DNA from: Eledone cirrhosa
Taxonomy: Eukaryota
Direction: 5' to 3'
DNA: 64,000 bases
NCBI GenBank assembly: GCA_964016885.1
Contig: OZ024742.1
Coordinates: forward strand, 137,578,001-137,642,000
Program-made: the position numbers and the translations under genes
Part shown: piece after piece, positions 29,877-60,405 of the stretch
Position numbering within the stretch: the first letter of the stretch is position 1
Layout: every line of letters begins with the position of its first letter
Notes under the pieces: model-generated
Told to the model about the DNA's origin: nothing
The model's database searches: none
The model's input: only the letters and a program-made list of their open reading frames with translations

Positions 29877-29964
29877 TCCTCGACTACGTAGTTTCGTGGC
29901 ATAAACAAAAACAATATATCAAAGATATAGAGTCCTTGCGAGGTCTGCCGACTTATCAAGAGGA
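29877..29964 (-). ncRNA. Hammerhead variant with a long helix II insert
   Basis: Reverse complement of 30523-30610. Confidence 0.65.
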
Positions 29965-30522: not shown

Positions 30523-30610
30523 TCCTCTTGATAAGTCGGCAGACCTCGCAAGGACTCTATATCTTTGATATATTGTTTTTGTTTATGCCACGAAACTACG
30601 TAGTCGAGGA
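30523..30610 (+). ncRNA. Hammerhead variant with a long helix II insert
   Basis: TCCTC-TTGATAA-GTcGGCA..TGCCAC-GAAA-CTACGTAG-TC-GAGGA. Helix III is palindromic and the predicted cleavage site is GUC. Confidence 0.65.
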
Positions 30611-33600
30611 ATTTAGGAACAGTTTAGGTATGATACATTTTATTACTAATTATATCTAAATGTTTCTTCTCTCTTCATAATGTATATATATATATATATA
30701 TATATACAGATATATGCAGTCTAACGAATTCATTAATTCAATAAAATTAGAAATATATAATTACAGAACAAAAGTAAATCATACATATAATCAAGGCTAA
30801 ATTGTAACAATCCCTCCGTATAGTAAGACCGATGGAATTCATGACGAAGTTAACAGGCGCTAGGACGACTTTGAATATAGCATTAACATTCTTCAATCGC
30901 AATTTCATCAAGATTTATCATTCCTGTGGCCCGTCTATGAAATTGAAAATTGCCGCAAAGAATAAAACCGACGTAAATCCATGTTTCTCTTGTAGGACTA
31001 ATGAGAGCTGTCCTCTTCTACAGAAATATATCCAATTGATTGTGTATGAGGCAGAGATTACATACAACACAGAATCCTCTAAAGTTAGAGAAGGATATGT
31101 GGCTATGAAACGATGATCAATAGTATTGCTATTTTCTTATTTTTATTACTCTTCTCTTATTCTCTTCGGAATTAAGAAACTCCATGTACCACCAAAACCT
31201 TCTCCTTGGGACGCAGATTTTGAAAATCAAATCATTTTTCTTTCTAGGTCGCACCGTTTCGGAGCATTTCAGTGACATGCAAATATACATACAATTATAC
31301 ATACACACAATAATTAGTTAGACGCAATAATTTATTGACAAATATACATTTTATAGCATCTTAATGTATTGATCATTCTTGATGAGTTATGAATGTAACA
31401 TCAAATCATATACAGTATTTGAATATATTTTACTCACCAAACACATTTGAGCACGTTTGACGGAATGGTATCTTGGAGATTTCTGTGTTATGAAAATGAA
31501 TTGAAAATATTCATAGGTATTTTCAGGGTAAGAATTTAAATTTAGAATCGTTAACTAAAGAAACGCTTTTCGAGTTAAAAAGTATTCTACGATCTTCTCT
31601 CGTGAAGAGGCCTCTGTCAAATGCGTTGGTCACTGAACAAATGCAGTGGAGGTGATTGTATACAAAAAACCTGAATCTCATGATTGACTGCCTTTACTTT
31701 TATTTCTTCGGCTCGCTGCACTCCGACAATTAATATACGACGTCCAAACACGCCTAAATCCAATGTTATTATATAAGCGATTACTCCCTGGTGGTGTAAT
31801 AAACCGTTTGCATATTATAGAATACAAATGAAATTACGATTATTTTTCTTTGGTATAATTTTTGTTATTCTTTCATGTTTTCGTTTTGAAATTTCTAAAT
31901 CGAATTCTAAATCAGCCCTAGATAATAATTTATATTGTCCTTAGAATTTCCGAATGTTTTACTTCCAATTTTAATTTGTTGCTGTGATTACCCGCTGTTA
32001 CCTGCAATCAAGCACTAGTCAAAATAAGATTCCACAACTCTTTCTTTTTACGTTTTTTCACAGTAGACCACTTTTAATCCTTCACTTTCTTTTCTTTTCT
32101 TCCTACTGCCTCGTATTTCACTCTTTTTTTATTCAATGACAAATTCTTTTGAGACTAAAGTATATTCATGTAGCTTAAACTTTGGAAGATGCCTCATTAT
32201 TGAAACTTAAAAAACAAATGTTTACACGTAAGTCAGTCGTAGTTTTCCTTTTTAAGAGAGGGCTCTTTCAAAATAAAATGATTACCAGACTATTTGTCAA
32301 ATAATAATCATTACAGGTTTCCGAGCATGACCATGTGAGATTAATTGTACCCAAGTGAGAATTCAAATCACGGCCTTCGCGTTCATATTATCTTATTTCA
32401 ATTTATGATCTATTTGAATATAAACTGTGGCCTCTTGTTCACAATTGTTGTGTGCTAACTGGTCCATAATAACTGTATGGCCGATGTGTGGTTCTATGAT
32501 GTGAGGTAGAAGAACCTGAGGAAACAATCAAGCCTCTCGTTCGTCATTGATGTGATAATTGTCTATAGTGATTACTACATTATGTTCATACTTATTTCAG
32601 AATTCAATTGTCTGGATTAACTCAAACTCTGACACTTATATCGACTTTCTCTATTGTCTATTATTGATTGAAAACAAACTGCAGAAACGTAGCCAGTCAA
32701 TTCTGTGAAGTAAACGTTCTATCATCATCATCGTCACGTTTTCAACAACTGAGGTCCGTTTCAAATTGTAGTCAGAACTGGTCAATTAATAAACACATTA
32801 CAAACAATTTTGTCACATAATTGTTTTCTTCGAAATTTCCGTATTAATTTAAAACTTTGATTGAAAGTTCTCATACATGATTTTTAGTGTAACGTTTTTG
32901 TGCTATAAGAGATTTCCATATATAAATCTCAATGCACGCAAATATATTCTATATAAAAGAATAATATTTCACTATGATATAACAAAATAGTTTAATTGAA
33001 TAGGCTTGCGTTCAGTAAGCGGTTTGTTACTCGTTGCATCAAATGTTGAATAAAGTATAGAGATTCAGGAATAATTTAATATATGATAATTATGAAAACC
33101 ACCGATGTGTGTAAAGACATCATTTTATTATAATATTTTTTCATGGAAGCTACGAAATATTTGATGAAAATAAGTTGAAAATTCCTTCAAGTTTAATGAA
33201 GTTAGAATCGAATGTCTATATTTTCTTACTCTTTTGCATTGTCCTATATCTTTTCTCTTTCGCATCTATAATTCTATCTTCCGACGTATGTGTAATCTTC
33301 GAATCTCTAAGCCAACTTATCTACTACATTGAGCTGTAAATTAAATATATCATCCTTGTATTATGTTCTTCTTCCGTGCTTTTCATTGTTGTTCTTATAT
33401 ATAATGGTACTTATTTTTTTAGAAGAATCATATTTTAAGAGCTCTACCATTTTTCTAACTTGCTGATTATCATTTCTTTGAAGATAATGGATGATATACA
33501 TCAATCTGATTGTTGCGGTAAAGGCAGAAGACAATGTTTCAGACATTGCTTGCTTCCTGATCAGTCATACACCGGCAACTTTGATAGTTCTGACAGTTGT

Positions 33601-37484: not shown

Positions 37485-37798
37485 TAGATATATTACACAT
37501 ATGAGGTATTAGATTGCTGCTTAGTTTTTGATGACACCTGATCCCAGAGAACAATGCTTCATCGTGAAATCAATGCAACTATTGATGAATTATTTGTTGC
37601 TAAAAGAGATAAACATGAGGCCATGTATTTAGCACTTTGTAGTTGTAGGTTTTTTTAGTTTTTTTTCTTTTCTGATTGATCTTTGTTGTACAATTGTCTA
37701 TGTTTATAAGTTGAGTGTTATTTAAAATAAAAAAATACATACTCTATTAGTTGTGTAATTCAACAATAATGAAAACCACAATAACAGCAACAACGAAA

Positions 37799-37877
<79 letters not shown>

Positions 37878-37923
37878 TACCACTACTACTACTACTACTA
37901 CTACTAATACTACTACTACTACT

Positions 37924-37965
<42 letters not shown>
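37799..37965. repeat. Compound (TAC)n(TAA)n microsatellite; left boundary of the retroelement nest
   Basis: Direct reading. Confidence 0.95.
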
Positions 37966-40219
37966 CCAGGCAGGGTGGATTGAGACAGTACAGAGGGAGA
38001 TCGGTGAGCAGGCACACCAACAAACTGATTTGAGTATCACAGTTGAAACTCTTAAGGGGCAGGCCAAAAAACTAACCAACTGGAAATCACCAGGCCCAGA
38101 TGGTGTGCAGGGGTATTGGATTAACATTTTAACATCCCTCCACCCGAAGCTGACGGCCATGTTCAATGACTGCTTGGTGTCGGGTGAGGTGCCAGAGTGG
38201 TTGACAAAAGGTACCACAGTTCTGATAATGAAAGACCGAATCAAGGGTAATGATGTTACCAACTATAGACCTATCACATGTCTGTCCGTAATGTGGAAAC
38301 TGTTGACGAGCATTATGTCTGAGGAAATCTACCATCACCTCCACACAAACAACTTGTTACCGGACGAACAGAAAGGATGCCGAAAGAAGTCACGTGGTAC
38401 AAAGGACCAGTTGCTTATTGATAAGATGGTAATGGGGAATTGCAGGAGGAGACACACTGATCTTGCCATGGGATGGATAGACTACAGAAAGGCATTTGAC
38501 ATGGTGCCTCATTCTTGGATCACCAAAAGCCTGGAGATCTTCAGGGTGGCAGATAACATCAGACAGTTGCTGGGCAGGAGTATGGGGTCCTGGGAGACAG
38601 AGTTGACATCAACTGGAGTATCCTTGGGAAGCGTGAAGATCAAGAGAGGTATCTTCCAGGGAGATAGCCTGTCCCCTCTGTTGTTTGTCCTTGCCCTGAT
38701 GCCCTTGATCATTATGCTGCGAAAAGTGAGAGCAGGATACAAGTTGGGAAAGGGAGAGCTTACCATCAATCACCTCCTCTTCATGGACGATCTTAAGCTC
38801 TTCGGGAAAAGTGAGAAGGAGTTGGATGTGCTTGTTGACACTGTCCGTATTTTCAGCAGTGATATATGTATGCAGTTTGGTATTAGTAAATGTGGAGTCA
38901 TTGTGATGAAGAGGGGTAGGTTGAGCAGAAGTAACGGGATCCAGATACCAACAGGTGAGATGATAAAGGAAATTGACTCTGAGGAAGGATACAAGTATTC
39001 GGGCGTTCTGGAGGCTGATGGCATAAAGAACAAAAAAATGAAGGAATTGTTAAGAACTGAATACATTCGGAGAGTAAGGAGCGTATTGAAGTCACATCTG
39101 AACAGCAGAAATGCCATAAGCGCAGTAAATTCCCGAGCTGTGTCTATTATTAGGTACAGTGCGGGAATTCTGAGATGGAATGTTGCTGAATAAAAAGAAA
39201 TGGATAGGAAGACTAGAAAGCTATTGACTATCTACAACATGTTCCACAAGAGGAGTGATGTCGATAGACTCTACCTAAGGAGATCTGAGGGTGGAAGAGG
39301 TCTTATCAGCATAGAGGACTGTGTTCAGATGGAGAAAAACAACCTATACAAATACGTGACCTATAGTAAGGAGCCAATGCTCATAACTGTACTGAAGGAG
39401 GGGACAGTAGGCCAGGGGATGTCCAAGGAGGAAATAACATCAAGGAGGAAGAGCAGCCTTAAGGGAAAATCCCTTCATAGTACCTTCTTTGAGAAAACTG
39501 AATTTAGAGATCCACAGACATGGAACTGGTTGAGAAGAGGTGACCTCAAAAAGGCTACAGAAGGAATGCTAATGGCTGCGCAGGAGCAGGCCCTCAAAAC
39601 GAAGTGGTTGAAGCACCATATTTACAAGGAGGAGGCTAGCCCACTGTGCAGGATCTGTGGAGAGAGAGAGGAGACTGTGGCTCACATTGTATCTGAGTTT
39701 AAACACCTAGCCCAGACCCACTATAAGGGCTGGAGACATGATGTGATGGGGAGGGTGATCCACTGGCACCTGTGCAAAGTGAACAATTTACCACATTCTG
39801 AGAAGTGGTATGAGCATAGGCCAGAGGCGGTGACGGAGAACGATCAGGTGAAGGTGCTGTGGGATTTTAGGATACAGACGGACAAGAAACTGGAACACAA
39901 TAGACCTGACCTGGTGGTTGTGGACAAAGAAAAAAGATCGTGTCTGATTGTGGATGTGGCCTGCCCATTCGACACGAGAGTGCAAGAGAAGGAGAGGGAG
40001 AAAATTAACCGATACCAGGACCTAAAGTGGGAGGTGAAAAGGATTTGGAACTGCCATGAAGTCAAAGTGATCCCGATTGTCATAGGCGCACTGGGGACTA
40101 TCTCCAAAAGTTTCCAGGGATGGTTAAAGAAAATCGGCCCCGTCACGCTTTTTGGAACGCTTCAAAAGGCATGCTTGCTTGGAACAGCAAGAACCCTCCG
40201 ATACGTCCTGAATATCTGA
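37966..40219 (+). pseudogene. RT plus RLE polyprotein with one in-frame stop at 39191-39193
   Basis: KSPGPDG, YRPITCL, DYRKAFDMV, GIFQGDSLSP, LFMDDLK; CRIC..ETVAHIVSE, RHD, RPDLVVVD..IVDVACP..K..RY. Confidence 0.88.
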
Positions 40220-40293
40220 GGCTGCAGGTAGTGGCTTGATATTAATTCCAACGGACTTTCCAGTTAACCAACATCAATGACTGAGATTCAAGG
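37966..40293 (+). mobile_element. R4/Dong-like non-LTR retrotransposon D1, 5'-truncated
   Basis: Contains RT, a CCHC motif and a restriction-like endonuclease, then a short 3' UTR ending in (AAT)n. Confidence 0.88.
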
Positions 40294-40334
40294 AATAACA
40301 ACAATAATAATAATAATAATAATAATACTAAATA

Positions 40335-41107
40335 GAACTGGTTGAAAAGAGGAGATCTTAAAAAGGCTACAGAAGGAATGTTAATAGCTGCGCAAGAGCA
40401 GGCCCTTAAAACGAAGTGGTTGAAACACCATATTTACAAGGAGAAGGCTGGCCCACTGTGCAGGATCTGTGGAGAGAGAGAGGAGACTGTGGCTCACATT
40501 GTATCCGAGTGCAAACACCTAGCCCAGACTCACTATAAGGGCTGGAGACATGATGTGATGGGCAGGGTGATCCACTGGCACCTATGCAAAGTAAACAATT
40601 TACCACATTCTGAGAAGTGGTATGAGCATAAGCCAGAGTCGGTGATAGAAAACGATCAGGTGAATATGCAGTGGGATTTTAGGATACAGACGGACAAGAA
40701 ACTGGAACACAATAGACCTGACCAGGTGGTTTTGGACAAAGAAAAAAATCGTGCCTGATTGTGGATGTGGCCTGCCCATTCGACACGAGAGTGCAAGAGA
40801 AGGAGAGGGAGAAAATTAACCGATACCAGGACTTAAAGTGGGAGGTAAAAAGGATTTGGAAGTGCCATGAAGTCGAAGTGGTCCCGATTGTCATAGACGC
40901 ACTAGGTACTATCTCAAAAAATTTCCAGGGTTGGTTAAAGAAATTTGGCCCTTTCACGCTTTTTGGAACGCTTCAAAAGGCATGATTGCTGGGAACAGCA
41001 AGAACCCTCCGATACGCCCTGAATATCTGAGGCTGCAGGTAGTGGCTTGATATTCATTTCAACAAACTTTCCAGTTAACTAACATCAATGACTGAGACTC
41101 AAAGAAC
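40335..41107 (+). mobile_element. R4/Dong-like copy D2 (3' 0.8 kb, frameshifted)
   Basis: Homologous to the D1 3' end; (AAT)n on both sides. Confidence 0.9.
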
Positions 41108-41143
41108 AATAATAATATTAATAATAACAATAATAATAATAAT

Positions 41144-42247
41144 TGAACAAAAAGAAATGGATAGGAAGACTAGGAAGCTATTGACTATCTACAACATGTT
41201 CCACAAGAGGAGTAATGTCGATAGACTCTACTTAAGGAGATCTGAAAGTGGAAGAGGTCTTATCAGCATAGAGGACTGTGTTCAGATGGAGAAAAACAAC
41301 CTACACAAATACGTGACTGATAGTAAGGAGCCAATGCTCAGAATTGTACTGAAGGAGAGGACAATAGACCAGGGGATGTCCAAGGAGGAAATATCAACGA
41401 GGAGAAAGAGCAGCCTTCATGAAAAATCCCTTCATAGTACCTTCTTTGAGAAAACTGAATTAAGAGATCCACAGACATGGAACTGGTTGAAAAGAAGAGT
41501 CCTTAAAAAGGCTACTGAAGGAATGCTAATGGCTGCGCAAGAGCAGGCCCTCAAAACGAAGTGGTTGAAATACCATATTTATAAGAAGGAGGCTAGCCCA
41601 CTCTGCAGGATCTGTAGAGAGAGGAGAGTGTGGCTCACATTGTATCCGTGTGTAAACACCTAGCCCAGACACATTATAAGGGCTGGCGCCATGATGTGAT
41701 GGGCAGGGTGATCCACTGGCACCTATGCGAAGTGAACAATTTACCACATTCTGAGAAGTGGTATGAGCATAAGCCAGAGTCGGTGATAGAAAACGTCACG
41801 TGAAGGTGCTGTGGGATTTTAGGATACAGACGGACAAGAAACTGGAACACAATAGACTTGACCTGGTGGTTTTGGACAAGGAAAAAAGATTGTGCCTGAT
41901 GTTGATGTGGCCTGCCCGTTCGACACGAGAGTGCAAGAGAAGGAGAGGGAGAAAATTAACCGATACCAGGACTTAAAGTGGGAGGTAGAAAGGATTTGGA
42001 ACTGCCATGAAGTCAAAGTGGTCCCTATTGTCATAGGCGCACTAGGTACTATCTCAAAAGGTTTCCAGGGATGGTTAAAGAAAATTGGCCCCGCCACGCT
42101 TTTTGGAACGCTTCAAAAGGCATGCTTGCTGGGAACAACAAGCACCCTCCGATAAGTCCTGAATATCTGAGGCCGCAGGTAGTGGCTTGATATTCATTTC
42201 AACAAACTTTCCAGTTAACTAACATCAATGACAGAGACTCAAAGAAC
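41144..42247 (+). mobile_element. R4/Dong-like copy D3 (3' 1.1 kb, frameshifted)
   Basis: Homologous to the D1 3' end; (AAT)n on both sides. Confidence 0.9.
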
Positions 42248-42523
42248 AATAATAATAATAATAATAATGATAATAATAATGTTTTCTTTATTAACCACAA
42301 GGGTTCACATAAAGTAGACATTAAGAACAGTACAGGACAATACAGGACGGTACAAATGGGCATTTCTGCGTGTAAAAAAACAGAGGTTGAAATAAAATAA
42401 CAAAGAAAAATTCCCCAATAGGGGGGAGACTTCCAAGGGACATTTGTGGAGAAAGCCCATTAAAAGACCACAGTGGCCCTGACCACCAGGGCAAGTGCCC
42501 TCTCCCAGTTTTCCACCTTTAAT

Positions 42524-45500
42524 TTACAGACACATACTCAGAGAAGGCCCATTCATTCGGGCCATACTTGCTTCTCTCACCCATCTTTCAACAAAATGCT
42601 GGGAAGAGAGCACTTCCCTCTCTACCCTGATTTTCCTTTTCAAATGAAATTTGAAAAAGTTAATCAGGGCATCACCGAAGAGGTAAGTGCTCGTCTTCAG
42701 CCCTTTCAAACGTGTCCACCATACTATCTCTTTCGCCATGGCCACCAGACAGATAAAAACTGCCTGCCCTTCCAGGCTAAAGGAAGGGGGCGGGGCAATC
42801 CTCACGATGGACTCAGCTGATAGCTGGATAGGTCCTACACGTGACAGCAGGTGTTCGACATAAACCCACAAGTCAGCAAGGCTCGGACACTGGACGAGTG
42901 CGTGCAGGACGGTTTCGTCGCCCTGCGCTCATCTCGGACATGCCCGGCTGACGGCACCTCCATGCCTGTAGAGTTTATCCCGAACTGGCAAAGCTCCTCG
43001 GTAGCACTGCCAGGGATTTCTGGAAGTTGTCCATAGGCCCCGGCCCGAAAGTCCTTCCGAAGAGATTGGCTAGTTGATTTTCGTCGACGCCTAGAGTTTC
43101 TCCAAGTACGTCGTCGCTCTTCCCCTCCACTAATCCCCTATAGAACGCCAAGGTGGAGTTTCCACCGATCACATTGCCCGATTGGTCGAGGGCTGTGAGC
43201 GCCTGAAGACATTCCAGTCTCCAAGCGCTCCCTCTCGGTCTTCGCTTGACCCAGGACTGCAGCTCCGTCAAGGAGACGAGCTGGGGAAAAACGTGTCTTG
43301 CAAACGGCGACCACACCTGATCACCGTCGAGGAAGAGGTGGAGATGTCGTAGCCTGAGCGCGTGTCTGCGCATCATCAGCCACGGCATGCCCAGCCCTCC
43401 ACGTAGCGGGTGTTGACAGCAGATGGACCGCCTGACCATCGGAGCGCGTCCCTTCCACAAGAAGCGAAAGAGCAAACGCTCCAGCGCAGTCAGGCGGGGC
43501 TTAGGACAAGGTACGACGGTCAGGCGGTAGTAGATGACGGATGCGATGTACGCATTCGCCACCTCCGCTCGACCTTTCAGGGATAGCTTCCTCTCGGCCC
43601 ATTTCTGGGTGAGAGAAGCCACCCTGCTCGTCACCTCGTCCCAGTTTTTGTCCGTCTGGAGGTCTGGACCGAACCAGACCCCTAGCAATTTAACCGGTCC
43701 GTCCGTCCAGCGCCCGACGACGCTGTTGGACGGCATGGACCTGCCTCTCCAGGTGCCGAGCTGCAGGCCCACTGACTTTTCCTGGTTGATCATTGCTACT
43801 GTCACCGCTTCGTATTCTCTTAGTGTAGTGCCGATCGCCTCGATGTGTTTGGCGTTCGACACCACTACGGTGACATCGTCGGCATATGCTGACACGGATC
43901 TTCCGCATCCTAGTTCGCGCGGGACCCCCCCCCCCTCAACGTCTCCAGTTTGTGCAGTAATGGCTCGAGAGTCAATACGTACAATAGGGACGAGAGGGGA
44001 CATCCTTGGCGGAACGAGCGCATGATGTTGAACGGTTCCGAAAGGTAACCGTTCACTCTCACTACAGAGCAGATGTCGCTGTGCATGGCAGCGATCCAGC
44101 CTCTGAAGACGGGCCCAAAGCCAACCGCCCTCAGGACTGCCGTTAGGTAACGATGGTCGACCCTATCGAAGGCTTTCGACAGATCTAAATTGATCAAAGA
44201 CCCACCCGTGCCAGGTTCCCTAGCTACCCTCTCTACGATGTATCGCATGAGGTGGAGGTTGTCGTGGATGGATCTGTCGGGAATGGCGCATGTCTGTGCC
44301 TCTCCCACCAGACCACCAACGACAAGCGCCAACCTCTTTGCTAGCACCTTGGCCAAAATCTTGAACTCTGTGTTTAGCAGAGTTATGGGCCTAAAATTAT
44401 CTATGTTATCCCCCTTGTTCGGATCCTTTCTCAGCAGCGCCACCGCTCCTCGGCTCACAGAGCTGGGAATTCTCCCGTTCTGTTGCCAGTTGCAGTAGAC
44501 GTCCGCCAAGAGGCCTCCGAACAAGTTTGGCATTTGTACGTAAAGTTCATAGGGCAGACCATCCAAACCAGGCGATTTACCCCTTATGCAACTAGTCATT
44601 GCATCCCGTACTTCAGCGGTTGTTATCGGCTTTTCGCAACACTCCGCCTCAGTGGCCGAAAGCCGCGGCAGTCCGTCGAGGTAGACACTAAAGTCCATCC
44701 CTCGATCCGGCCCGCCACTGCCCCCGAACAGTTGAGCGAAGTGTCGCTGAAAAGCTTCACACATTTGCCCGGGATCGAGTAGCATGCGCCCGTCGTGGTC
44801 CACCAAAGACCGGATCGTGGCTTTGTTGCCACGACGCGCCTCCGCCACTTGGGCCCATTGAACGGCTTTCGTCCCCTGGTGTCTGAGAGCACGCACCCTA
44901 GCTCTGACAACGCAGCCTTCGTGCTTTGCATTGAAGAATTGGTCAAGGGCCAATTTCGCCGCAAGTACGTCGGTCGCGATGCCTTTGCTAAGCGCCTCAT
45001 CTAATTTTCTAACTAATTCTCCCTCTGCTCTATTTTTCTCTATTGCTAAAGTCTTACTAAACCTAATGGACTCTATTCTAATTGCTCTTTTCAGAGCAAA
45101 CCACCACTTGTTGTTGACGATGGCCCCCGTCAACGCCCGCTTAACTAGTTCGCTAATCCGGTCTCTGTAGGCCTTGCGCGCTGGTAAGGACGCGTTTAGC
45201 TTCCAGTAGCCGGGTCCTCGTCTATGAAGCCTATCTAAGTCAAGCACACAGATCACGAATTTGTGGTCCGTGTAGCTGACTATCTTGAATTGTGGACAGC
45301 CTATGCTAGACCTATCTATTTCCCTACAAAATACTCTATCTAGATATGATCTGGATGACCCTATGCGATTTGTCCAAGTCCACATTGGTACATTCGGGAA
45401 ATCCATTCCGTACCTGTCAGACAGTTCAAAACGTCTGAGCAGGTTGGTGAGACTCTTGCACCCTCCTTCCCTATCCACTAATCCCACACAATCCCAGCGT

Positions 45501-45944
45501 GCATCTAAGATCCCGTTCCAGTCGCCCACTAACACTAAAGTGCGGGACGTTCCAAGAAAGGTCTCCAGACGCCGGAAGAAATCAGGCCGCCCTGCTCCTG
45601 TCGGGGCATAGACGGCCACTAACCTGGAAGCTTGCCCGTCTCCGCTGGTCACGTCCAGCACCACCAACTTACCTTCTGGGTCCAGGAAGATGGCCCGTAT
45701 GGCAAGATCCAAACCTCTCCGAAAAAGCACAGCAACTCCTCCCCCCCGATCCCGGACGGCTGGGAGATGCGTACACATCGTAGCCGCCGAAGATCGGTGC
45801 GAAAGCCTGTGCTTCGGAGATTCTGGTCTCGCTGATGGCCACTACATCTATGTTTAGTGACCTGAGGTCGTTGAGCAGGTGGCCCTGCTTCCATGACGAC
45901 CCCAAGCCACGCGCATTTATGCTGCCTATTCTGAGTGAGGTCAT
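42524..45944 (-). pseudogene. Tx1 ORF2 (APE + RT + C-terminal Cys/His motif), frameshifted
   Basis: GDWN, TDH, SPGLDG, FRPITLLN, KAFDRV, QGCPLS and YADD motifs. Shifts near 45745, 43930 and 43010. Confidence 0.9.
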
Positions 45945-45978
45945 GTTGAAAAGGAGTGGAAAAGATGGGAAAGACCAC

Positions 45979-47944
45979 TTACCTTACTTCTCGTAGGGGA
46001 AGTACGGTTTTTCCATCCTTTTCACTGCTTGTGGCCTCCTCAGGAAGGATGTCCTTATAAATCCTCCTGGAGAGTTCTTGTCGGAAGTCTCCGATGTCTT
46101 TTGGGAATTTTTGTTTTAGTGTCATGTACGTTTTCTGTGTGATGCGAGTGATTTGTATGTGTGGAGGTGGTGTGAATTTTGGGGTTGTTGTGTAGTCTTT
46201 TTCTGTGATGCTGGTGTTGTGTTGGATGTAGTGTAATAATTGCTTGTTGTTCAAATTTAATGCTGTGTAGTGTGTTTCGTTTTGGTTGTTTTGTTTTGTT
46301 TGCGTTTGTTGTGGGTTTGTTTCTGTTTCGCATTTTGGTGACTTTTGTGGTGTAGGTGATGGTGGTGTTGGAGTTAATGATGGTGATGGTGTTGGTGTTT
46401 GGGTTGATGGGGTTGGTGATGCTGGTGTGGATGGTGGCATATCTGTCCTAACTTTTTTGTTTCTTAGTTTATTTGTTTCCCTCTGTGTTTTGTTTTTGGA
46501 GGGAGAAGGAAGAGAATTTTTTCTTTTTTGGTTTCTTTTTTTTTTTCCGGATATCGTTTCCCACTCCTCGTCGTCACAATCTGTCTCCAGTTGTGATAGG
46601 CCGGGGAGTGGAAAATCCTCCACAGCCGTTAGTTTTGGTTGTGGTGTGGTGGATGGTGTAGGCGCTGGTGCTAGTTCTGAAGCGTTGGGTGGTGGTGGTG
46701 TTGATTTTGCTGGTGGTGGTAGTGGTGTTGGTTTTGCTACTGTTGCTGGGGTTGTTGCTGTTATAGTTGCTTCTGTTGTTGCTGCTACAGTTGTTGCTGG
46801 CATCTCTGCTACTGGTGGTGTTGATGGTTGTGTCACTGGGGTGGGTAGGAGAGGTGGCCTCAACCTTTTAGCCTGAGGGCAGAAAGCCCTTAGGTGGGTT
46901 CCTTCACCACAAACGACACACCTAGGTCTTCTGCCCTCGACAATTACCGTGAGGTGGCTGCCGTCAGTGAGGTCTATTACCTCTGGGATCTCCTCAATGC
47001 TTTTTTGGTCCGCTTGGATCAGGAGCTCCATCCCAGATCCGGACCAGTTTTCCTGCTTTTCTTTTGCTATTGTTATTATTTTCGTGTTGGCCTCGATGCC
47101 GGCGAGGACAGCCGCTATTAGCCAGGGAATTTCGATGGCCGGTGGAACGTGGGTTACCCTGATCTTTACGAGTCTCTGGCCACAATAGCTTGGGACGAGT
47201 GTGAAGTCGTCACTTTTTAATGGGGCCATGGAGTGTTCTCTAGCCTCCTCTGTTGTTTCAAAGAACACATCCACGGTTCCATACTTTTGCCCACGTCTGA
47301 TGTGGGTTTTTCTTGCCCACACATGTCCCAAAGCTTTTTGGATTTGGGACTCGGATGCCCGTTCCACTCGGCGCGATTTTACATTTATTGTTCTATACGA
47401 CACGGTGCATAGGCGCCGATGCTCCATTTTATTAGGTGGGGGGAAGGGGGGTGAGGCTGACCCTCTACCCATCTTTCTTTACCATTTGTTTGGCATTTTA
47501 TAAATCTTCTTGAGTTACGGTAAATGCTTCGAATTGTTTTGCTAATCTGGCGAAACTGAGGGGGGGGGGGGTTTATAATGTCATTGTTGTTGTTGTTGCT
47601 ATCGTTAATATTAATTTTAGTTTCAGTTGTGGTGGTGACGTCAGTCGTCTTTGGTGGGGAAGAGTCCATTTTGCTTGATTTCATTTCGACATCACGAGTT
47701 AATTTATTTTTTTCTTCTTTTGTTTCTGTTGTCGCGGTGGTGGTGGTGGTGGAGGCTTTAACACCTGCAGTCATTGGTAATGGCGGGAAATGAATGTCTG
47801 CCTGAGACAAATTTAAAATATTGCTACTGCTTATATTTTTTTTTGTGTTGGCAAACGTAGTAACATTTACAATGGTGGTGTCGGTGTGAGGTGTTATTTT
47901 GTGAGGAGTCTTTCAGCTGCTTCGTGCAGAGGTGAAGTAGCCAT
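45979..47944 (-). pseudogene. Tx1 ORF1, frameshifted in G/C runs
   Basis: Near-identical to 1167-3122; indels at about 47440-47570. Confidence 0.9.
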
Positions 47945-48431
47945 TTTTTTTTAAAGAAATTTTTTGATAATAATAAAAGTTAAAATTTTGGGCACAAGGC
48001 CCCAATCTTTTTAGGTGTCCTTTTCGGAAAACAATGTATGTGTGCTTATAAACAGTTAACAATAAAATTTTCCATAAATGGCAATTTTTAGACAAACGGA
48101 AATAACAAACCTTTGCGGAGCTCACGATAATACGATTTCCTACGTAGGTCGCCAATAATAATAATAATAATAATAATAATGATTTCTTTATTAACCACAA
48201 GGGTTTACATAAAGTAGACATTAAGGACAGTGCAGGACAATACAGGACGGTAGTAATGGGCACTTCTGCGTGTAAAAAAAAAAAACAGAGGATGTAACAA
48301 AAAAATAACAATGAAAAATTCCCCAATAGGGGGGTGACTTCCGAGGAACATTTGTGGAGAAAGCCCAGTAAAAGGCCAAAGTGACCCTGACCACCAAGGC
48401 AAGTGCCCTCTCCCAGTTTTCCAGCTTTAGT

Positions 48432-51400
48432 TTATATATACGTACTCAGAGTAGGCCCATTCACTCGGGCCATTCTTGCTTCTCTCACCCATCTTTCAAC
48501 AAAATGCTGGGAAGAGAACACTTCCCTCTCTACTCTGATTTTCCTTTTCAAATGAAATTTGAAAAAGTCAATCAGGGCATCACCGAAGAGGTACGTGCTC
48601 GTCTTCAGCCCTTTCAAACGAGTCCACCATACTATCTCTTTCGCCATGGCCACCAGACAGATAAAAACTCCCTGCCCTTCCCTGCTAAAGGAAGAGGGCG
48701 GGGCAATCCTCACGATGGACTCAGATGATAGCCGGATCCGTCCTACACGCGACAGCAGGTGTTCGACATAAACCCACAAGTCAGCAATTTTCGGACACTG
48801 GACGAGTGAGTGCAGGACGGTTTCGTTTCCCTGCGCGCATCTCGGACATGCCCGGCTGACGGCACCTCCATGCCTGTAGAGTTTATCCCGAACTGGCAAG
48901 GCTCCTCGGTAGCACTGCCAGGCCAGAGATTTCTGGAAGTTGTCCATAGGTCCCGGCCCGAAAGTTCTTCCGAAGAGATTGGCTAGTTGATTTTCGTCGA
49001 CGCCTAGAGTTTTCCCCAAGGACGCGTCGCTCTTCCCCTCCAATAATCCTCTATACAACGCCGAGGTGGAGTTTCCACCGATCACATTGCCCGATTGGTC
49101 GAGGGCTGAGAGCGCCTGAAGACATTCCAGTCTCCAGGCGCTCCCTCTCGGTCTTCGCTTGACCCAGGACTGCAGCTCCGTCAAGGAAACGAGCTGGGGA
49201 AATACGTGTCTAGCAAACGGTAACCACACCTGATCACCGTCGAGGAAGAGGTGGAGATGTCGTAGCCTGAGCGCGTGTCTGCGCATCATCAGCCACGGCA
49301 TTCCCAGCCCTCCACGTAGCGCGTTTTGACAGCAGATGGACAGCCTGACCATCGGAGCGCGTCCCTTCCACAAAAAGCGAAAGAGCAAACGCTCCAGCCC
49401 AGTCAGGCGGGGCTTAGGACAAGGTACGACGGTCAGGCGGTAGCAGATGACAGACGCGATGTACCCGTTAGCCACCTCCGCTCGACGTTTCAGGGATAGC
49501 TTCCTCTCCGCCCATTTTTGGGTGAGAGAAGCCACCCTGCTCGTCACCTCGTCCCAGTTTTTGTCCGTCTGGAGGTCCGGACCGAACCAGACCCCTAGCA
49601 ATTTAACCGGTCCGTCCGTCCAGCGTCTGACGACGCTGTTGGACGGCATGGACCTGCCTCTCCAGGTGCCGAGCTGCAGGCCCACTGACTTTTCCTGGTT
49701 GATCATTGCTCCTGTCACCGCTTCGTATTCTCTTAGTGTATTGCCGATCGTCTCGATTTGTTTGGCGTTCGACACCACTACGGTGACATCGTCGGCATAT
49801 GCTGACACGGATCTTCCGCATCCTAGTTCGCGCGGGACGCCCCTCAACGTCTCCAATTTGTGCAGTAATGGCTCGAGAGTCAATACGTACAAGAGGGACG
49901 AGAGGTGACATCCTTGGCGGACTGAGCACATGATGTTGAACGGTTCCGACAGGTGACCGTTCACTCTCACCACAGAGCAGATGTCGCTGTGCATGGCAGC
50001 GATCCAGCCTCTGAAGACGGGCCCAAAGCCGGCCGCCCTCAGGACTGCCGCTAGGTAACGATGGTCGACCCATCGAGCGCTTTCGACTGATCTAAATTGA
50101 TCAAGGACCCACCCGTGCCAGGTTCCCTAGCTACCCTCTCTACGATGTATCGCATGAGGTGGAGGTTGTCGTGGATGGATCTGTCGGGAATGGCGCATGT
50201 CTGCGCCTCTCTCACCAGACCACAAACGACAAGCGCCAACCTCTTTGCTAGCACCTTCGCCAAAATCTTGAACTCTGTGTTTAGCAGAGTTATGGGCCTG
50301 AAATTATCTATGTTATCCCCCTTGTTCGGATCCTTTCTCAGCAGTTCCACCGCTCCTCGGCTCACAGAGCTGGGAATTCTCCCGTTCTGTTGCCAGTTGC
50401 AGTAGACGTCCGCCAAGAGGCCTCCGAACAAGTCTGGCATCTGTAAGTAAAGTTCATAGGGCAGACCATCCAAACCAGGCGATTTACCCCTTGTGCAGCC
50501 AGTCATTGCCTCCCGTACTTCAGCCGCTGTTATCGGATTTTCGCAACAATCCGCCTCAGTGGCCGAGGTAGACACTAAAGTCCATCCCTCGATCCGGCCC
50601 ACTGCTGCCCCCGAACAGCTGAGCGAAGTGTCGCTGAAAAGCTTCACACATTTGCCCGGGATCGAGTAGCATGCGCCCGTCGTGGTCCACCAAAGATTGC
50701 ATCGTGGCTTTGTTGCCACGACGCTCCTCCGCCACTCGGGCCCATTGAACTGCTTTCGTTCCCTCGTGTCTGAGAGCACGCACCCTAGTTCTGACAACCA
50801 GCCTTCGTGCTTTTCATTGAAGAATTGGTCAAGGGCCAATTTCGCCGCAAGCACGTCGGTCGCGTCCCTTTGCTAAGCGCCTCCTCTAATTTTCTAACTA
50901 GTTTTCCCTCTGCTCTATTTTTCTCTATTGCTAAAGCCTTACTAAACCTAATGGATTCTATTCTAATCGCACTTTTCAGAGCAAACCACCACTTGTTGTT
51001 GACGATGGCCCCCGTAAACGACCGCTTAACTAATTCGCTAATCCGCTCTCTGTAGGCCTTGCGCGCTGGTAAGGACGCGTTTAGCTTCCAGTAGCCGGGT
51101 CCTCGTCTATGAAGCCTATCTAAGTGAAGCACACAGATCACGAATTTGTGGTCCGTGTAGCTGACTATCTTGAATTGTGGACAGCCTATGCTAGAACCTA
51201 TCTATTTCCCTACAAAATACTCTATCTAGATATGATCTGGTTGACCCTATGCGATTTGTCCAAGTCCACATTGGCACATTCGGGAAATCCAATCGGTACC
51301 TGTCAGACAGTTCAAAACGTCTGAGCAGGTTGGTGAGACTCTTGCACCCTCCTTCCCTATCCACTAATCCCACACAATCCCAGCGTGCATCTAAGATCCC

Positions 51401-51828
51401 GTTCCAGTCGCCCACTAACACTAAAGAGCGGGCCGTTCCAAGAAAGGTCTCCAGACGCCGGAAGAAATCAGGCCGACCTGCTCCTGTCGTGGCATAGACG
51501 GCCACTAGCCTGAAAGCTTACCCGTCTCCGCTGGTCACGTGCAGCACCACCAACTTACCCTCTGGGTCCAAGAAGATGGCCCGTATGGTGAGATCCAAAC
51601 CTCTCCGAAAAAGCACAGCAACTCCTCCCCCGATCCAGGACAGCTGGGAGATGCGTACACATCGTAGCCGCCGAAGATCAGTGCGAAGGCCCGTGCTTCG
51701 GAGATTCTGGTCTCGCTGATGGCCACTACATCTATGTTTAGTGACCTGAGGTCGTTGAGCAGGTGACCCTGCTTCCATGACGACCCCAAGCCACGCGCAT
51801 TTATGCTGCCTATTCTGAGTGAGGTCAT
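48432..51828 (-). pseudogene. Tx1 ORF2, multiple frameshifts
   Basis: MTSLRIGSINARGL start, RT YADD, and CPRC..ETVLH..VQC. Confidence 0.9.
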
Positions 51829-51830
51829 GT

Positions 51831-54006
51831 TTAAAATAGAGTGGAAAAGATGGGAAAGACCACATACCGTACTTTTCGTAGAGGAAGGATGGTTTTTCCA
51901 TCCCTTTTCACTTGATCGTCTGGTGAAGGGACCGTTGAATCGTCCCTTCGGCTGGTCGTCGGCTCTTCTATGAATATGTCGGAATATACTCTCCGGTTGA
52001 GAGTCCCTCCTAGGTCTCTGAAATCACCAACTGCGTTGGGGAATTTCGTTTTAATGTTTGTGTATTGTTTCTGTGCTATTTTTAGCAGTCTTATGTTAGT
52101 TGGCGTTTTGATTGGTGCTGGTATTATGTAGTCGTGCTGTGAAATGTATGTGTGTTCAATTATGTAAGTCATTAGTTTCTTTTTGTGTGAATTTATTGCC
52201 GTGCATTTGTTTTTCTGGTGGTGGGGTACGGTTCTGCAATTTTCTTGTCGTTGTTGCTGGGTGTGTGTGTTTTGTCGTTGTGTTTGCGATGTTGGTGCTT
52301 GTGGTGGTGGTGCTGAAGGTGTTGTTGTTGTTGGCGGTGGGGTGGTCGCCGGTGGTGATGGTGGTGCTAGTGTGGGTGGTGATGGTGTTGGTGGTGTTGC
52401 TGCTGTGAGTCTCTTTGCAGTAGCCTTTACCCTTTTTTCATTTCTTTCCTCCCTTTTCGAAGGCGACGATGCGCTGCTTCTGCGTTTGTGCCTTCTTACG
52501 ACTTTTGACATACCTCTTCCAACTCACACTCCATGTCTGATTTTGTGAGGTCGGGGAGGGGTACCAGTTCCACTCTTTCACTTGTTGTTGTTGGTGATGT
52601 TTGCACTCGAGTCTCTGTTGCAGCTGCATTTGGTATTACTGTTGTTATTGTTAATACTTCCACTGCTGCTGCTGTTTTTGATTTCCGTGGCGTGGGTATG
52701 GGTTCCACGGACCTATCGTTCCTGGTTGCCGCTTGTCCTGTTGCTGGTAGCCGTGGAGCCGGTTTCGGAAGGAGGGGGGTTTTCTCCTTTCTCAGGGTCT
52801 TCTCGTTGCAGAAGGCCCTGATGTGAGTCTTCGATCCACAGCGAAAGCATTTCGGGCGTTTGCCCTCAACACTTATGGGCAGTTGAGTGCCGTTATCGAA
52901 GTCTATCACATCCGGGATAGCTTCGATGCACTCCTGGTTGGTTTGGATTAACATCTCAATGGAGGTGCCGACCCAATCTTCTCTTACTTTTTTCTGTACT
53001 TGCAGTACAGTTGTTTTGTCCTCGATTCCGACGAAGACAGACGCGGCAGCCAAGAAGAGGCCATCCCGGGGGTGGACGTGGGTCAGTTTGATCCTCACAA
53101 TTTTTTGCCCGCAGTAGGAGGGCACCAACACCATTTCCTCGCTCCTTAGGGCCACTAAGGATTGAGCCTTTGCCTCTTGGGGTGTGGCAAAAACACGTCT
53201 ACGGTGGCATATTTCTTGCCTCGGGTGATGTGCGTTTTCCGCTGCCACACACACCCTAAGGCTTTTTGTATTTTAGCCTTTGTGGCTCTTTCAACCCTAC
53301 GGGATTTTGTGCTTACTGTTTGGTACGTGACCGTACAGTGCTGTTGGGTTTCGAAAAATTTTTCGGCTGCCTTGCAGATTGCTCGGTGTCCGGTTTTCGT
53401 CACTATCTTCTTCGCTTCCTCTAATTCCTCATTTGTTATAAGGATGGTTTCCAGGTTCTTTGCGATACCTGCAAACGAGATTGGTTTTTCTTTGCTGCTG
53501 CTGTTGTTGTTGTTGTTGTCGTCAGAGCTGCTGTTACTTTTGTTGTTCCTGCAGGTACTACGACTACTGCCGCCGCCGCTGTTGCTGTGGTTGTTGTTGT
53601 TGTTGCTGCTGCTGCTGTTGTTGTTGCTGTTGCTGCTAATGCTGTTGTTGTTTATGCTGCTGTTGATGCTGTTACGGCTGCTACTGTTGTTTTCCTTGTC
53701 ACTGTTGCTGCTGCTGCTGTTATTACGGCTACTACTGCTATTATTCCTGACGTCAGCCGAATGAAATGGGTTTTCGTATTTCCCGCACACCTTTTTCGTC
53801 GTTGTCGTCGTCGTCGTGGAGAAATCTTGCACGCTTTGCACGTGATTCTTCTTTTCTGGCGTCGCTTGCGAAAGAGAAGGGAAGGGGAGAGACACATTTA
53901 GAGAAGGGAGGGATAGAGACAATTTTCTCTCTGCTGTAGTGACGATTGAGGAAGAAGAAGACGGAATGAGTGGGAGTGACTTATGAAAATTCTTTTTCGT
54001 AGCCAT
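51831..54006 (-). pseudogene. Tx1 ORF1 of a second type, frameshifted
   Basis: Three fragments (53155-54006, 52496-53254, 51831-52511) colinear with T-A ORF1; Asn/Ser-rich N-terminus. Confidence 0.85.
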
Positions 54007-54223
54007 ATTTTTTTTTTTTGTTTAAAATAAATATTTGGCACAAAACCCCAATAAGCGGTTATTTAACCCCGAAGGGCCAAATAACGGGCAGAAAGACCCC
54101 TCTCACGAGGAGGAGGGTGTTTTTGTCTACAAGTTGGTTAAAGTTTTAAACAATTTACAATTGTTATAGCGCTCAAAATTTACAATACCTTACAGAGCCG
54201 AGCCTCCGTCAACCATAGCATTC

Positions 54224-54252
<29 letters not shown>

Positions 54253-54256
<4 letters not shown>

Positions 54257-54436
54257 TGTTTCTACTTTAGGCACAAGGCCAGCAATTATCCAGTGCATTA
54301 CTGGTACTTTATTTTATCGACCCCGTAAGGATGAAAGGCAAAGTCAACCTCGGCGGGATTTGAACTAAGATCGTAAAGGGACGTAACTATGCTGGAAAGC
54401 ATGGCGTCCGACCCTCTACTGATACTGCCAATCCAC
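54253..54436 (-). mobile_element. tRNA-derived SINE family S, full length
   Basis: A-box TGGCAGTATCAG, B-box GTTCAAATCC, body GACTTTGCCTTTCATCCTTACGGGGTCGATAAAATAAAGTACCAG, and 3' CCTTGTGCCTAAAGTAGAAACA(ATT)n. Confidence 0.92.
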
Positions 54437-54445: not shown

Positions 54446-55265
54446 GAGAAAGAACAACCTTCATGAAAAATCCCTTCATCGTACCTTCTTTGAGAAAACT
54501 GAATTTAGAGATACACAGACATGGAACTGGTTGAACAGAGGAGACCTTAAAAAGTCTACAGAAGGAATGCTAAGGGCTGCGCAAGAGCAGGCCCTCAAAA
54601 CGAAGTGCCTGAAACACCAAGGATCTGTGGAGAGAGAGAGGAGACTGTGGCTCACATTGTATCCGAGTGCAAACACCTAGCCCAGACTCACTATAAAGGC
54701 TGGAGACATGATGTGATGGGCAGGGTGATCCACTGGCACCTATGCAAAGTAAACAATATACCACATTCTGAGAAGTGGTATGAGCATAAGCCAGAGTCGG
54801 TGATAGAAAACGATCAGGTGAATGTGCTGTGGGATTTTAGGATACAGACGGACAAGAAACTGGAACACAATAGACCTGACCTGGTGGTTTTAGACAAGGA
54901 AAAAAGATCGTGCCTGATTGTGGATGTGGCTTGCCCATTCGACACGAGAGTGCAAGAGAAGGAGAGCGAGAAAATTAACCGATACCAGGACTTAAAGTGG
55001 GAGGTAAAAAGGATTTGGAACTGCCATGAAGTCAAAGTGGTCCCGATTGTCATAGGCGCACTAGGTACTATCTCAAAAAGTTCCCAGGGATGGTTAAAGA
55101 AAATTGGCCCCGCCCCGCTTTATGGAACACTTCAAAAGACATGCTTGCTGGGAACAGCAAGAACCCTCCTGAATATCTGAGGCTGCAGGTAGTGGCTTGA
55201 TATTCATTTCAACAAACTTTCCAGTTTCCAACTTATTTTCATCATTGACTGAGACACAAAGAACA
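54446..55265 (+). mobile_element. R4/Dong-like copy D4 (3' 0.8 kb)
   Basis: Homologous to D1-D3, with small deletions. Confidence 0.9.
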
Positions 55266-55285
55266 ATATTAATAATAATAATAAT

Positions 55286-58200
55286 TGTTTCTACTATTAG
55301 CCACAAGGGGAGACATGTAGGGGACAGTGGGGGTTTACAATAGGGTCGCGTAAAAGTGCACAATGGCAATACATATTTAACAATGAAGATATAAAACTAT
55401 AAAATAAACTATGCATAAATATAACAAAATAAATTCCCCGATAGGGTTGGATGAACCATCCTGCGCTTCTAGGACACCCAGGGAGAGCACCACTCTCCTC
55501 AAGTTAGCTAGCCTATAGGCGCATGGTCAGAGTAGGCCCATTCATACGAGCCATTCTCGCCACATTCATCCACCTTTTAGCAAATGTACTGGGGGGCAGC
55601 ATTTCTCTCTCCACCCTCACCTTCCTTTCCAGGTGAAACTTGAAGAAGTTGATGAGGGATTTGCCGAAGAGAAAAGTGTCTGTCTTCAGTCCTTTTAACC
55701 TGGTCCACCATATAACCTCTTTCGCAACTGCCACCAGACATAGCAAAATTTCCTGCCTAAGGAAGGCGGCGGGTCGATCTTCACTATGGACTCGGCTGAT
55801 AGCTGTTCGACATAACTCCACAAGTCAGTAATGCACGGACATTGGACAAGTGCGTGCAGAACGGTTTCGTCGTTCTGTGCGCATCTTGGGCAGGTCCGTC
55901 TGACAGCATTTCCGTGCCTGTAGAGTTTATCCCGAATCGATAGTGCCCCCCGGTAGCACTGCCAAACGAGGGATTTCTGGAAATTGTCCATAGTCCCCGG
56001 CTCAAAAGTCCTCCGGTACAGACTGGTCAGTTCGACTTCGTTGAGGCCCAACGCTTCTCCGAGCGCATGATCGCATTTACCCACCACTAATCCTCTATAG
56101 AACTCGAGAGTGGAAGTTCCACTGATCGCATTGCCTGCTTGGTAGAGGGCAGTGAGTACCTGGCATCATTCCAGGTGCCAATCATCCCGTCTCGGTCTCT
56201 TCTTGACCCAGGTCTGCAGCTCAGTCAAAGAAATGAGCTGCGGAAAGGCCCCTCTGTTAAACGGTGACCACATCTGTTCACCGTTGAGGCAGAATATCGG
56301 GAGATGTCGCAGCCTCAACGCATGTCTCCGCATCATTAGACACGGCATGCCCAGCCCTCCGCGTAGATGGTGCTGGCAGCAGATGGACCGCCTCACCAAC
56401 GGAACTTGTCTCCTACACAAGAATTTGAAGAGGTGCCGTTCCAACTTGACGAGGCGTGGACGGTGGCAAGGCACGACGGTCAGGTGGTAGTAGATGAAGG
56501 ACGCGATGTACGCATTCGGCACCTACGCGCGTCCTTTCAGTGATAGCTTCCTCCCAGCCCATTTTTGGGTGAGACAGGCTACTCTGTTCGTTACCTCGTC
56601 CCAATTATTTTCCATCTGGAGGTCTGGTAAAGCAACTTTACCGATCACTCCGTCCAGCGCCCCACGACGCTGTTGGACGTCATGGGCCTGTCTCTCCATG
56701 TTTCGAGTTGCAACCCCACTGACTTATCCGGGTTAAGTTTGGCTCCTGTCAACCTTTCATATTCCTTTAATAAGGTGCCTACCACCTCAATTTCTGAGGT
56801 GTTCGACACCATCACGGTGATGTTGTCCGCATAAGGCGACACTGCCTCTCCACGTCCCGGTTCGAGCGGGATGCCCTGCAACAGCTCCAGCTTCCGCAGT
56901 AAAGGCTCGAAAGTCAATACGTACAGAATTGAAGAGAGAGGCACCCTTGACCGACCTATCGGGAGAGCCGAAATGGTTCCGAGAGGTGGCCATTAACGTT
57001 GATCACCGAGCGTATGCCGCTGTGCTTTGCAGCGATCCAGCTTCTGAAGAGATGGCTGAAGCCAGCTGCTTTGACGCCAAACTTCAGATACCGATGGCCG
57101 ACCTTATCGAATGCTTTCGATTGATCTAAATTGATCAGTGCCCCCCTGAAGCCAGGTTTACACCCTACCCTCTCTATGATGTATCGCATGAGGTGGAGAT
57201 TGTCGTGTATGGACCTGGCTAGGATTGCGGAAGTTTGTGGCTCCCCAACCAAATTCTCGACGACAAGCGCCAATCTCTTTGCTAACACCTTGGCCAAAAT
57301 CTTAAACTCTGTGTTGAGCAGAGTTATGGGCCTGAAGTTGCCTAATGTATCCCTCTTGTTCTCGTCTTTCCTTATCAGCGTCACCACTTCCCTGCTCACA
57401 GAACTGGGAATACTCCCATTCTGCTGCCTGTTGCAGTAGATTGCTTCGAGGAGATCGGAGAACAAGTCTGGCATATTTACGCAAAGCTCATAGGGCAGGC
57501 CATCCAAACCAGGTGTCTTGCGCCTCATGCAGCCCACAAGGGCGTCCTGAATTTCGGCTGAAGTAATCGGCCTTTCACAGCGCTCAGCGTCGACCGTCGA
57601 GAAGCGCGGCAAGCCGTGAAGGTAGGGACTGAAATCCGCTACTATCTCTGACTCGCCACTCTCCCCGAACAACTGAGCAAAGTGTTGGCGAAAGGCGTCA
57701 CACATCCGCTTGGAATCGCTTATCTTGTGCCCGTCTCGGTTCGGCAAAGACCGAATTGTGGTTTTATTACCACGCTGCGTATCCGCCACGCGGGCCCATC
57801 GAACAGCTTTGGTTCCCTCGTTTCTCAGCGCACGCGCCTTAGCTCTGACAATGCAGCCTTCGTGTTTCGCATTGAAGAAATGGTCTAATGCCATTCCCGC
57901 CGCTAGCACGCCACTTGCAATGCCACTACAAATAGCCTCATCTAACTTATTTACCAGCTCCCCCTCCTTTCTATTTTTCTCTAACGCTAGTTCTTTGCTG
58001 AACTCTATCGAAGTTACTCTAATCTCTCTTTTGAGATCCCCCACCATCTGTTGTTGATGATCCCCCCTGTCAACGTTTGCTTAAATAAATTGTTGACTCG
58101 GTCCCTGTAAGCCTTAAGTTCCGGAAATGACATGTTCAGCTTCCAGTAACCCGGTCCTAACCTTCGCGTTTTATCTAGGTCGACCGTACATATCACAAAT

Positions 58201-60201: not shown

Positions 60202-60220
60202 TAATAATAATAATAATAAT

Positions 60221-60405
60221 GATTTCTACTTTTGGCACAAGCCCAGCAATTATCCCAGTTCATTACTGGTACTTTATTTTATCGACCCCGTAAGGATGAA
60301 AAGCAAAGTTAACCTCGGCGGGATTTAAACTCAGACCATAAAGGGACGTAACTCTATGCGTCAAAGCATGGCGTCCGACCCTCTACTGATACTGCCAATC
60401 CGCCG
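60221..60405 (-). mobile_element. SINE family S, full length
   Basis: Same structure as 54253-54436. Confidence 0.92.

Follow-up and report, generated by a model that had tools for sequence, protein, structure and literature searches.

A conserved 5' splice-site motif at the end of ORF1 in octopod L1/Tx1-group LINEs and its possible use in removing ORF2

LINE copies in the window and their classification

We analysed a stretch of 64,000 nucleotides (nt) of the octopod Eledone cirrhosa (assembly GCA_964016885.1, contig OZ024742.1, positions 137,578,001 to 137,642,000 of the forward strand; hereafter the window). It holds five copies of long interspersed nuclear elements (LINEs) of the L1/Tx1 group, all on the minus strand, head to tail, amid (ATT)n tracts, and every one of them broken or cut off. 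An initial annotation had noticed a 5' splice-site motif (donor) where the first open reading frame (ORF1) of these copies ends and a candidate acceptor close to their 3' end, and had proposed that the whole of ORF2 is one spliceable intron. Its observation was partly confirmed, and its interpretation is partly supported: the donor recurs in every lineage of the element that we sampled, and the position of the acceptor is not conserved.

The copy T-C (42281-48153), of lineage C, is full-length but frameshifted, and has an (ATT)n tail at 42248-42280. Its ORF1 (45979-47944, with the start set by alignment to the copy T-A) is broken near the 5' end and encodes a CX2CX4HX4C knuckle. The stop codon TAA of ORF1 falls within the conserved donor AAG/GTAAGT (45977-45985; the slash marks the exon-intron boundary and the first intron base is 45982). 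A pyrimidine-rich spacer ending in CAAC (45945-45976) precedes the ATG of ORF2 (42524-45944), which encodes an APE endonuclease and a reverse transcriptase (RT) and is frameshifted in this copy. Next come a CCCCTATTGGGG hairpin (42413-42424), which has variant forms in all lineages and lies within the proposed intron, and a candidate acceptor of the type found in lineages C, D and G, made of a T-tract and TTTTACACGCAG (42366-42390, last intron base 42366). The candidate terminal exon (42281-42365) has 19 codons to a TGA at 42305-42307 and an AATAAA at 42287-42292.

The other copies are T-A (1-3331), of lineage C, cut by the window edge, with an open ORF1 of 651 codons and a donor whose first intron base is 1170; T-D (48181-54223), of lineage D, with its donor at 51867, hairpin at 48321-48332 and acceptor at 48266; T-E (55270-60200), of lineage E1, 5' truncated, with GAG/GTAAGT starting the intron at 58920 and the ORF2 ATG at 58874; and T-B (3376-4602), an old, 5' truncated, E-like 3' fragment. 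The donors are where the initial annotation placed them on the minus strand, with AG/GTAAGT at 1170, 45982 and 58920 and CG/GTATGT at 51867. It had counted these four copies as independent cases, for which T-A and T-D are too close to T-C. T-A and T-C are 97.7% identical, and T-D matches T-C at 94% over the last 45 nt of ORF1 and ORF2, the rest of its ORF1 being different. T-E (73%) is the sole window copy independent of T-C, and the window thus represents two independent lineages. We also observed an exchange of ORF1 modules among lineages. In T-D an F-type ORF1 gives way, 45 nt before the donor, to a junction and ORF2 of C type (51868-54223 compared with 45983-48153; also loci L183 and L202), and in lineage G an ORF1 and spacer of its own precede an ORF2 that is 93% like that of C.

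Pieces of ORF2 match the Pfam families PF03372, PF00078 and PF13966 (APE endonuclease, RT and zf-RVT), and the Atlas clusters carry the same three families. An intact relative (L286, 1147 amino acids) has human L1 ORF2p as its best match in the PDB (E-value 1e-55), with R2 at 1e-22. The separate ORF1 has a CCHC knuckle (CVVCGEGTHLRAFC in T-A) and shows nothing above the Pfam cut-off; its named relatives come from Octopus and Argonauta, and those of Octopus are called CCHC-type domain proteins. With an ORF2 that joins endonuclease, RT and zinc domains and an ORF1 with a CCHC knuckle, these elements are L1/Tx1-group LINEs. They fit the description of Tx1 elements with microsatellite targets, Tx1 being told from L1 here by description and not by a tree with named references. 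The available part of a recent study records L1-Tx1 families as recently active in Octopus vulgaris (PMC13282606). Copies are flanked by (ATT)n, and those of lineage H by (TCTA)n, as judged by eye in the sampled ends, without a null. This suggests a switch of target within the clade, with H ending in and inserting into (TCTA)n and the others (ATT)n (L285, L286, L288 and L448-L464). There are more TCTA-type lineages with different 3' untranslated regions (UTRs), one of which (L286) has a strong TTATTCAG/G acceptor.

Conservation of the donor at the end of ORF1

We sampled the lineages of the element genome-wide (3.0 Gb) with a distant endonuclease query and follow-up searches. This revealed seven lineages, which we label C, D, G, F, E1, E2 and H, with ORF2 identities down to 71-76%; in a tree made of this genome's copies alone, C and E are about 0.45 substitutions per site apart. 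All seven have the motif (A/C/G)AG/GTAA(G/T)T where ORF1 ends, if one includes the ACG/GTAAGT of D. The junction reads AAG/GTAAGT in C, E2, F and H, GAG/GTAAGT in E1 and CAG/GTAATT in G. The ORF2 ATG follows 37-54 nt after the donor, and the spacer is 74-81% C/T in all lineages. We scored the motif against the 9-mer complementary to U1, taking at least 8 of 9 bases as a good match. Representatives of C, E1, E2, F, G and H reach this score, D and one E1 variant copy have 7/9, and the background is 6 good matches in 1328 windows of 95 nt. Within lineages, and omitting the loci picked for a mutant donor, GTAAGT is kept in 20/20 copies of C/D, 33/34 of E1, 10/11 of E2, 17/19 of F and 3/4 of H (28/30 in a further set of H), and the GTAATT of G in 17/20. 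The CG/GTATGT that the initial annotation read as a retained donor in T-D is real in that copy, but given the uniform C/D set it is private decay.

Such a motif might be inherited without any function in the RNA, through its overlap with the ORF1 stop or with a Gly-Lys end, the acceptor being a chance AG in a U-rich UTR. Indeed, the TAA of GTAAG is the stop codon in four of the seven lineages, D-P-E-G-K codons produce similar 9-mers within ORF2, and recombination swaps junction blocks between lineages, which lowers their independence. However, the donor occurs in three phases: phase 2, with the stop inside it, in C, D, G and H; phase 1, with a Gly-Lys-stop end, in F, E2 and one E1 variant; and phase 0 in another E1 variant. 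Hence, the stop codon fails to explain its conservation. Among C, E2, F, G and H the core from -2 to +6 is identical at 76/80 positions (95%), against 48/170 (28%) in the exon-side flank and 89/200 on the intron side; of the four-fold sites, 88/272 are the same in H, C, E2 and F. Drift would keep the eight donor bases with a probability of about 1e-4, and five bases (three being excused as stop codon) with 3.5e-3, both rough values given that junction blocks recombine. Lineage G has changed +5 and its entire spacer, yet it gained a C at -3 and still scores 8/9. We therefore regard a motif devoid of RNA-level function as improbable, and the pattern of substitutions argues firmly that the donor is under selection in this octopod L1/Tx1 clade. 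Its persistence across lineages with no more than 72-76% identity points to an RNA-level signal that is useful to the clade.

The signal is not general to the L1/Tx1 group, because none of the distant loci has one: among 77 L1/Tx1-like metagenome loci, the 62 with enough upstream sequence include no donor scoring 8/9 and a single one scoring 7/9. Closer relatives may share it. An ORF1 relative from Argonauta hians aligns to the end of E2 and finishes in PPEGKS, which at the protein level fits G/GT AAG TCN, and a second relative ends in PDQGK, which fits the same motif on the same kind of evidence. A mini-intron ending at the AG before the ORF2 ATG, as could be drawn in G and E1, was rejected, this AG not being conserved in C, E2, F and H.

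Possible splicing of ORF2 to the 3' UTR

From the sequences, the reading of ORF2 as an intron is plausible. In the form that we favour, to which we give slightly less than an even chance, splicing from the selected, U1-pairing donor into the 3' UTR would remove ORF2 and leave an RNA with ORF1 only, whose added tail would be dispensable and which would not re-insert. The element would be transcribed by RNA polymerase II, U1 would pair with the donor, and in part of the transcripts the 3.6-kb ORF2 would be spliced out to a 3' UTR acceptor that turns over between lineages. The resulting mRNA may benefit the element by supplying an excess of ORF1p, with the unspliced RNA providing ORF2p and the template. 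The C-terminal tail added by splicing would be dispensable and not a functional exon, and the spliced RNA would presumably fail to re-insert, having neither ORF2p in cis nor the conserved 3' hairpin. In lineage H a different acceptor would have to serve, e.g. CTGTAG/G at the ORF2 stop. An excess of ORF1p over ORF2p in two-ORF LINEs is usually ascribed to weak translation of ORF2.

The 3' ends lend this splicing some substance. Lineages C, D and G have a candidate ACGCAG acceptor 79 nt before the AATAAA end. The T-tract with TTTTACACGCAG/A described by the initial annotation is present in T-C and T-D (last intron bases 42366 and 48266), as is the 19-residue in-frame tail. In C, D, G, E1 and F a YAG (Y being C or T) of the 3' UTR ranks first among 116-124 YAGs by T content or AG-free distance. 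The distance from this top-ranking YAG to the AATAAA end is 17-132 nt in C/D/G, E1 and F, and exactly one AG follows the hairpin in 58 of 70 C/D/G-type 3' ends. No canonical AATAAA or ATTAAA between the donor and the 3' UTR is common to the lineages, and the terminal AATAAA is thus the only canonical poly(A) signal that they have in common. Lineage E1 has two YAGs, 95 and 132 nt before the 3' end.

Several observations weigh against ORF2-removing splicing. Any YAG in a U-rich UTR ranks high, which makes the ranking weak evidence, and a depletion of AG cannot serve as a further acceptor signal, as GA is just as scarce in the 3' tract. Lineage F reads ACGCAC where C has the CAG and has instead TGATGTCAG 17 nt before the 3' end, and the only AG of E2 has a poor tract, 44 nt before the end; both are suggestive of acceptor loss and gain. 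In lineage H (886 copies) the stretch from the hairpin to AATAAA lacks an AG in all of 10 readable 3' ends (20 regions fetched) and in both of two earlier ones. The acceptor is therefore plausible, but its position is not conserved: it differs among C/D/G, E1, E2 and F, and H has none. Thus, when conservation of the two splice sites is checked across the family, as the initial annotation had proposed, it holds for the donor in seven lineages and fails for the acceptor. The ORF2s of C and G also contain equally strong donors (8/9) near +309, where they follow from D-P-E-G-K codons and are not kept in all lineages. Finally, functional splice sites persist in human L1 and most transcripts escape splicing at them, according to the available part of PMC5860796. 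Separately, we observed that an Octopus sinensis gene model (P0005, tectonic-3-like) starts with a piece of this endonuclease ending in IFLDPE, exactly at the +309 site, which may be a prediction artefact.

The terminal exon adds to these difficulties. In a sample of 69 copies, enriched for older ones, 48 exons have 79 nt and 21 do not, the changes being -10, -9, -1, +1, +3 and +11; the absence of indels between T-C and T-D does not extend to the family. Several copies share the +1 and the 10-nt-unit variants, as expected if source elements carried them. Several of the exon differences between T-C and T-D are private, and the tail encoded by L283, which represents D, is the one found in C. Predicted tails in the other lineages are unrelated, from 15 residues up to no stop within 50. 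A protein search with the ORF1 C-terminus gave no match, and none of the ORF1 relatives of at least 215 amino acids, among the matches listed, ends in the predicted tail. The 19-codon exon is free of coding constraint, and the shared frameshifting variants speak against the conserved C-terminal exon that had been suggested.

A spliced RNA, if reverse transcribed, would leave genomic copies without ORF2, and a junction would show with only about 100 nt of complementary DNA. We found no precisely spliced copy in any lineage with exact-match patterns, which miss decayed copies. The C/D ORF1 end is followed by G in 2698 cases and by another base in 60, all of them point changes or deletions and none joined to the 3' exon, which bounds spliced C/D copies at about 0.1% (3/2758). 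The same end followed by G and two non-matching bases gave two matches, both small indels. None is spliced among 2 candidates of the D type (against 1947), nor among the matches for E1 (8), E2 (5), G (1), F (9) and H (11, of its 886 copies), the patterns for D, E2, G, F and H being ones that miss exons with first base G or second base T. Acceptor-side searches (204 and 120 matches, 100 of each listed; 60 loci and 9 regions examined) gave no spliced copy; of four TAAG/AAATG matches among those listed, three are point mutants and one is a 5' truncated copy that follows an ATT tail. A junction proximity pattern had 3 matches against 6 for its control, none within an element. One deletion starts at the donor (L028) and lands after ACG, not AG; of the 47 internal deletions found, two can be slid to fit GT..AG, and neither of these starts at the main donor. 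As an observation in its own right, copies at the loci L001-L180, where these 47 were seen, very often carry internal deletions (60 nt to 2.7 kb), mostly at short microhomology. Contigs from sequencing runs of unrecorded type count neither way, as contigs drop rare forms: four runs on T-C gave no donor-to-exon joint among the 15 joints listed of 533, and on L059, a natural copy in which 1 kb separates the donor from the 3' exon, three runs gave none in all 3 joints (18 of 70 loose ends listed). The depth of X4 was high at the 3' end.

The initial annotation had suggested that ORF1-only genomic copies could arise. Their absence from these exact-match searches refutes that suggestion, but it does not refute splicing, because L1 proteins act mainly in cis, according to the portion of PMC5860796 at hand. 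The hairpin offers a further reason. The CCCCTATTGGGG-type hairpin is common to all lineages and lies, in T-C, about 47 nt inside the proposed intron. If it is the signal recognized by ORF2p, as we infer, a spliced RNA would have lost it and could not be copied. That a spliced RNA would keep the 3' recognition end, as previously suggested, is then doubtful. A short repeat resembling a short interspersed nuclear element (SINE) was also seen at 60200-60420, 54238-54434 and at least 8 more places; its last 25 nt (CTTGTGCC..AAGTAGAAATC followed by ATT) resemble the LINE 3' end, and it may be a partner SINE.

The main problem for ORF2-removing splicing is lineage H, which keeps the donor and lacks the terminal acceptor. 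Together with acceptors at non-homologous positions and no spliced genomic copies, this suits another explanation: the motif may be selected as a U1 small nuclear ribonucleoprotein site without productive splicing, where it would aid transcription, restrain early cleavage or steer RNA export, the AGs of the 3' UTR being incidental. In the plant retrotransposon EVD, U1 bound to the donor also blocks premature termination, as far as the available text of PMC5580714 describes it. The main problem of a U1 site of this kind is that no AATAAA or ATTAAA common to the lineages lies inside ORF2 for U1 to suppress. Moreover, the exonic AG and the intronic bases are both kept, and C, D and G combine a full donor, a strong acceptor and an AATAAA 79 nt further on, the normal layout of a last exon, which is expected to splice. 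We consider this explanation, the main alternative, unlikely, albeit with an appreciable chance. The donor might also be used with other acceptors, in ORF2, at the ORF2 stop (CTRTAG, R being A or G, in H, E1, E2 and F) or in downstream host or tandem-array sequence. There are 28 YAGs within ORF2 common to five lineages, ORF2 ends in TAG in E1, E2, F and H, and the elements lie in head-to-tail arrays. But the best 8 of these 28 fit coding constraint and have modest tracts, ORF2 ends in TAA in C, D and G, and no AG was found joined to the donor in any genomic copy (the L028 deletion included), which leaves this option with a low probability. Evasion of HUSH through a lone donor was dropped, as protection is independent of the 5' splice site in the part of PMC8770142 available to us.

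Other window features and comparison with known systems

The window also holds a second RT-encoding LINE on the plus strand (37751-42250 and 54551-55250), with several 3' fragments ending in (AAT)n. This element may be RTE-like. The Tx1-type copies sit antisense in the (AAT)n tails of this LINE. A 41-nt tandem repeat occupies 63375-63998 (14 copies, 94% matches). An inverted repeat at 29797-30690, with arms of 282 nt that are 99% complementary and 330 nt apart, resembles a miniature inverted-repeat transposable element. On the minus strand, 9030-10297 contains two open frames (200-247 codons) whose start is rich in Cys, and the one that was checked has no Pfam match; this is probably a decayed transposon gene.

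Microsatellite-targeting Tx1 elements of the Kibi/Koshi type (PMC4494074, available part) have in common with those described here two ORFs, an ORF2 with APE, RT and zf-RVT domains, an ORF1 with zinc knuckles and insertion into microsatellites. They differ in the conserved donor at the ORF1 end, of which we found no mention in the titles and abstract starts surveyed and no instance in the 62 distant loci. No report of this arrangement in LINEs came up in that survey, outside which lie Repbase reports, supplements and most subscription papers, where a prior note is possible. Several thousand copies with a strong donor, an acceptor and an AATAAA may in addition influence the transcripts of the host.

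Human L1, too, is an L1-group LINE with internal splice sites, which give SpIREs (PMC5860796) and SpORF2 (PMC2896524). As the accessible parts of these studies describe it, the L1 donors belong to the 5' UTR and it is UTR or ORF1 that is spliced out, whereas here it would be ORF2. Spliced L1 copies occur in the human genome (about 1.8% for one class) and are viewed as dead ends, and L1 splicing is read as harmful to the element (PMC5860796); here no spliced copies were found. HAL1 (half-L1; PMC5753468, in part) likewise has ORF1 without ORF2, but as genomic families, and no ORF1-only spliced family came to light here. The introns of TART lie in antisense RNA, according to the part of PMC1636488 available.

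In its proposed working, the arrangement resembles the short GAG RNA of Arabidopsis EVD and plant Ty1/Copia elements (PMC5580714, in part): in both, the structural gene ends in a conserved donor that matches U1, and an excess of structural over catalytic protein is proposed. EVD is a long terminal repeat element in which a short intron over the protease is coupled to early poly(A), with RNA and mutants shown, and in which donor quality tracks splicing (PMC5580714). By comparison, the intron proposed here would span 3.6 kb, with the element's own terminal AATAAA as its poly(A) signal; the donor at the ORF end is present, but a fixed acceptor position and coupling to early poly(A) are not. More doubtfully, the octopod clade may have evolved a copia-like strategy independently: ORF2 would be a regulated intron whose donor overlaps the end of ORF1, and splicing would delete the hairpin needed for reverse transcription, such that the short RNA would supply surplus ORF1p but could not parasitise ORF2p. 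Under a strategy of this sort, the deletion of the hairpin would explain why thousands of copies include no spliced one.

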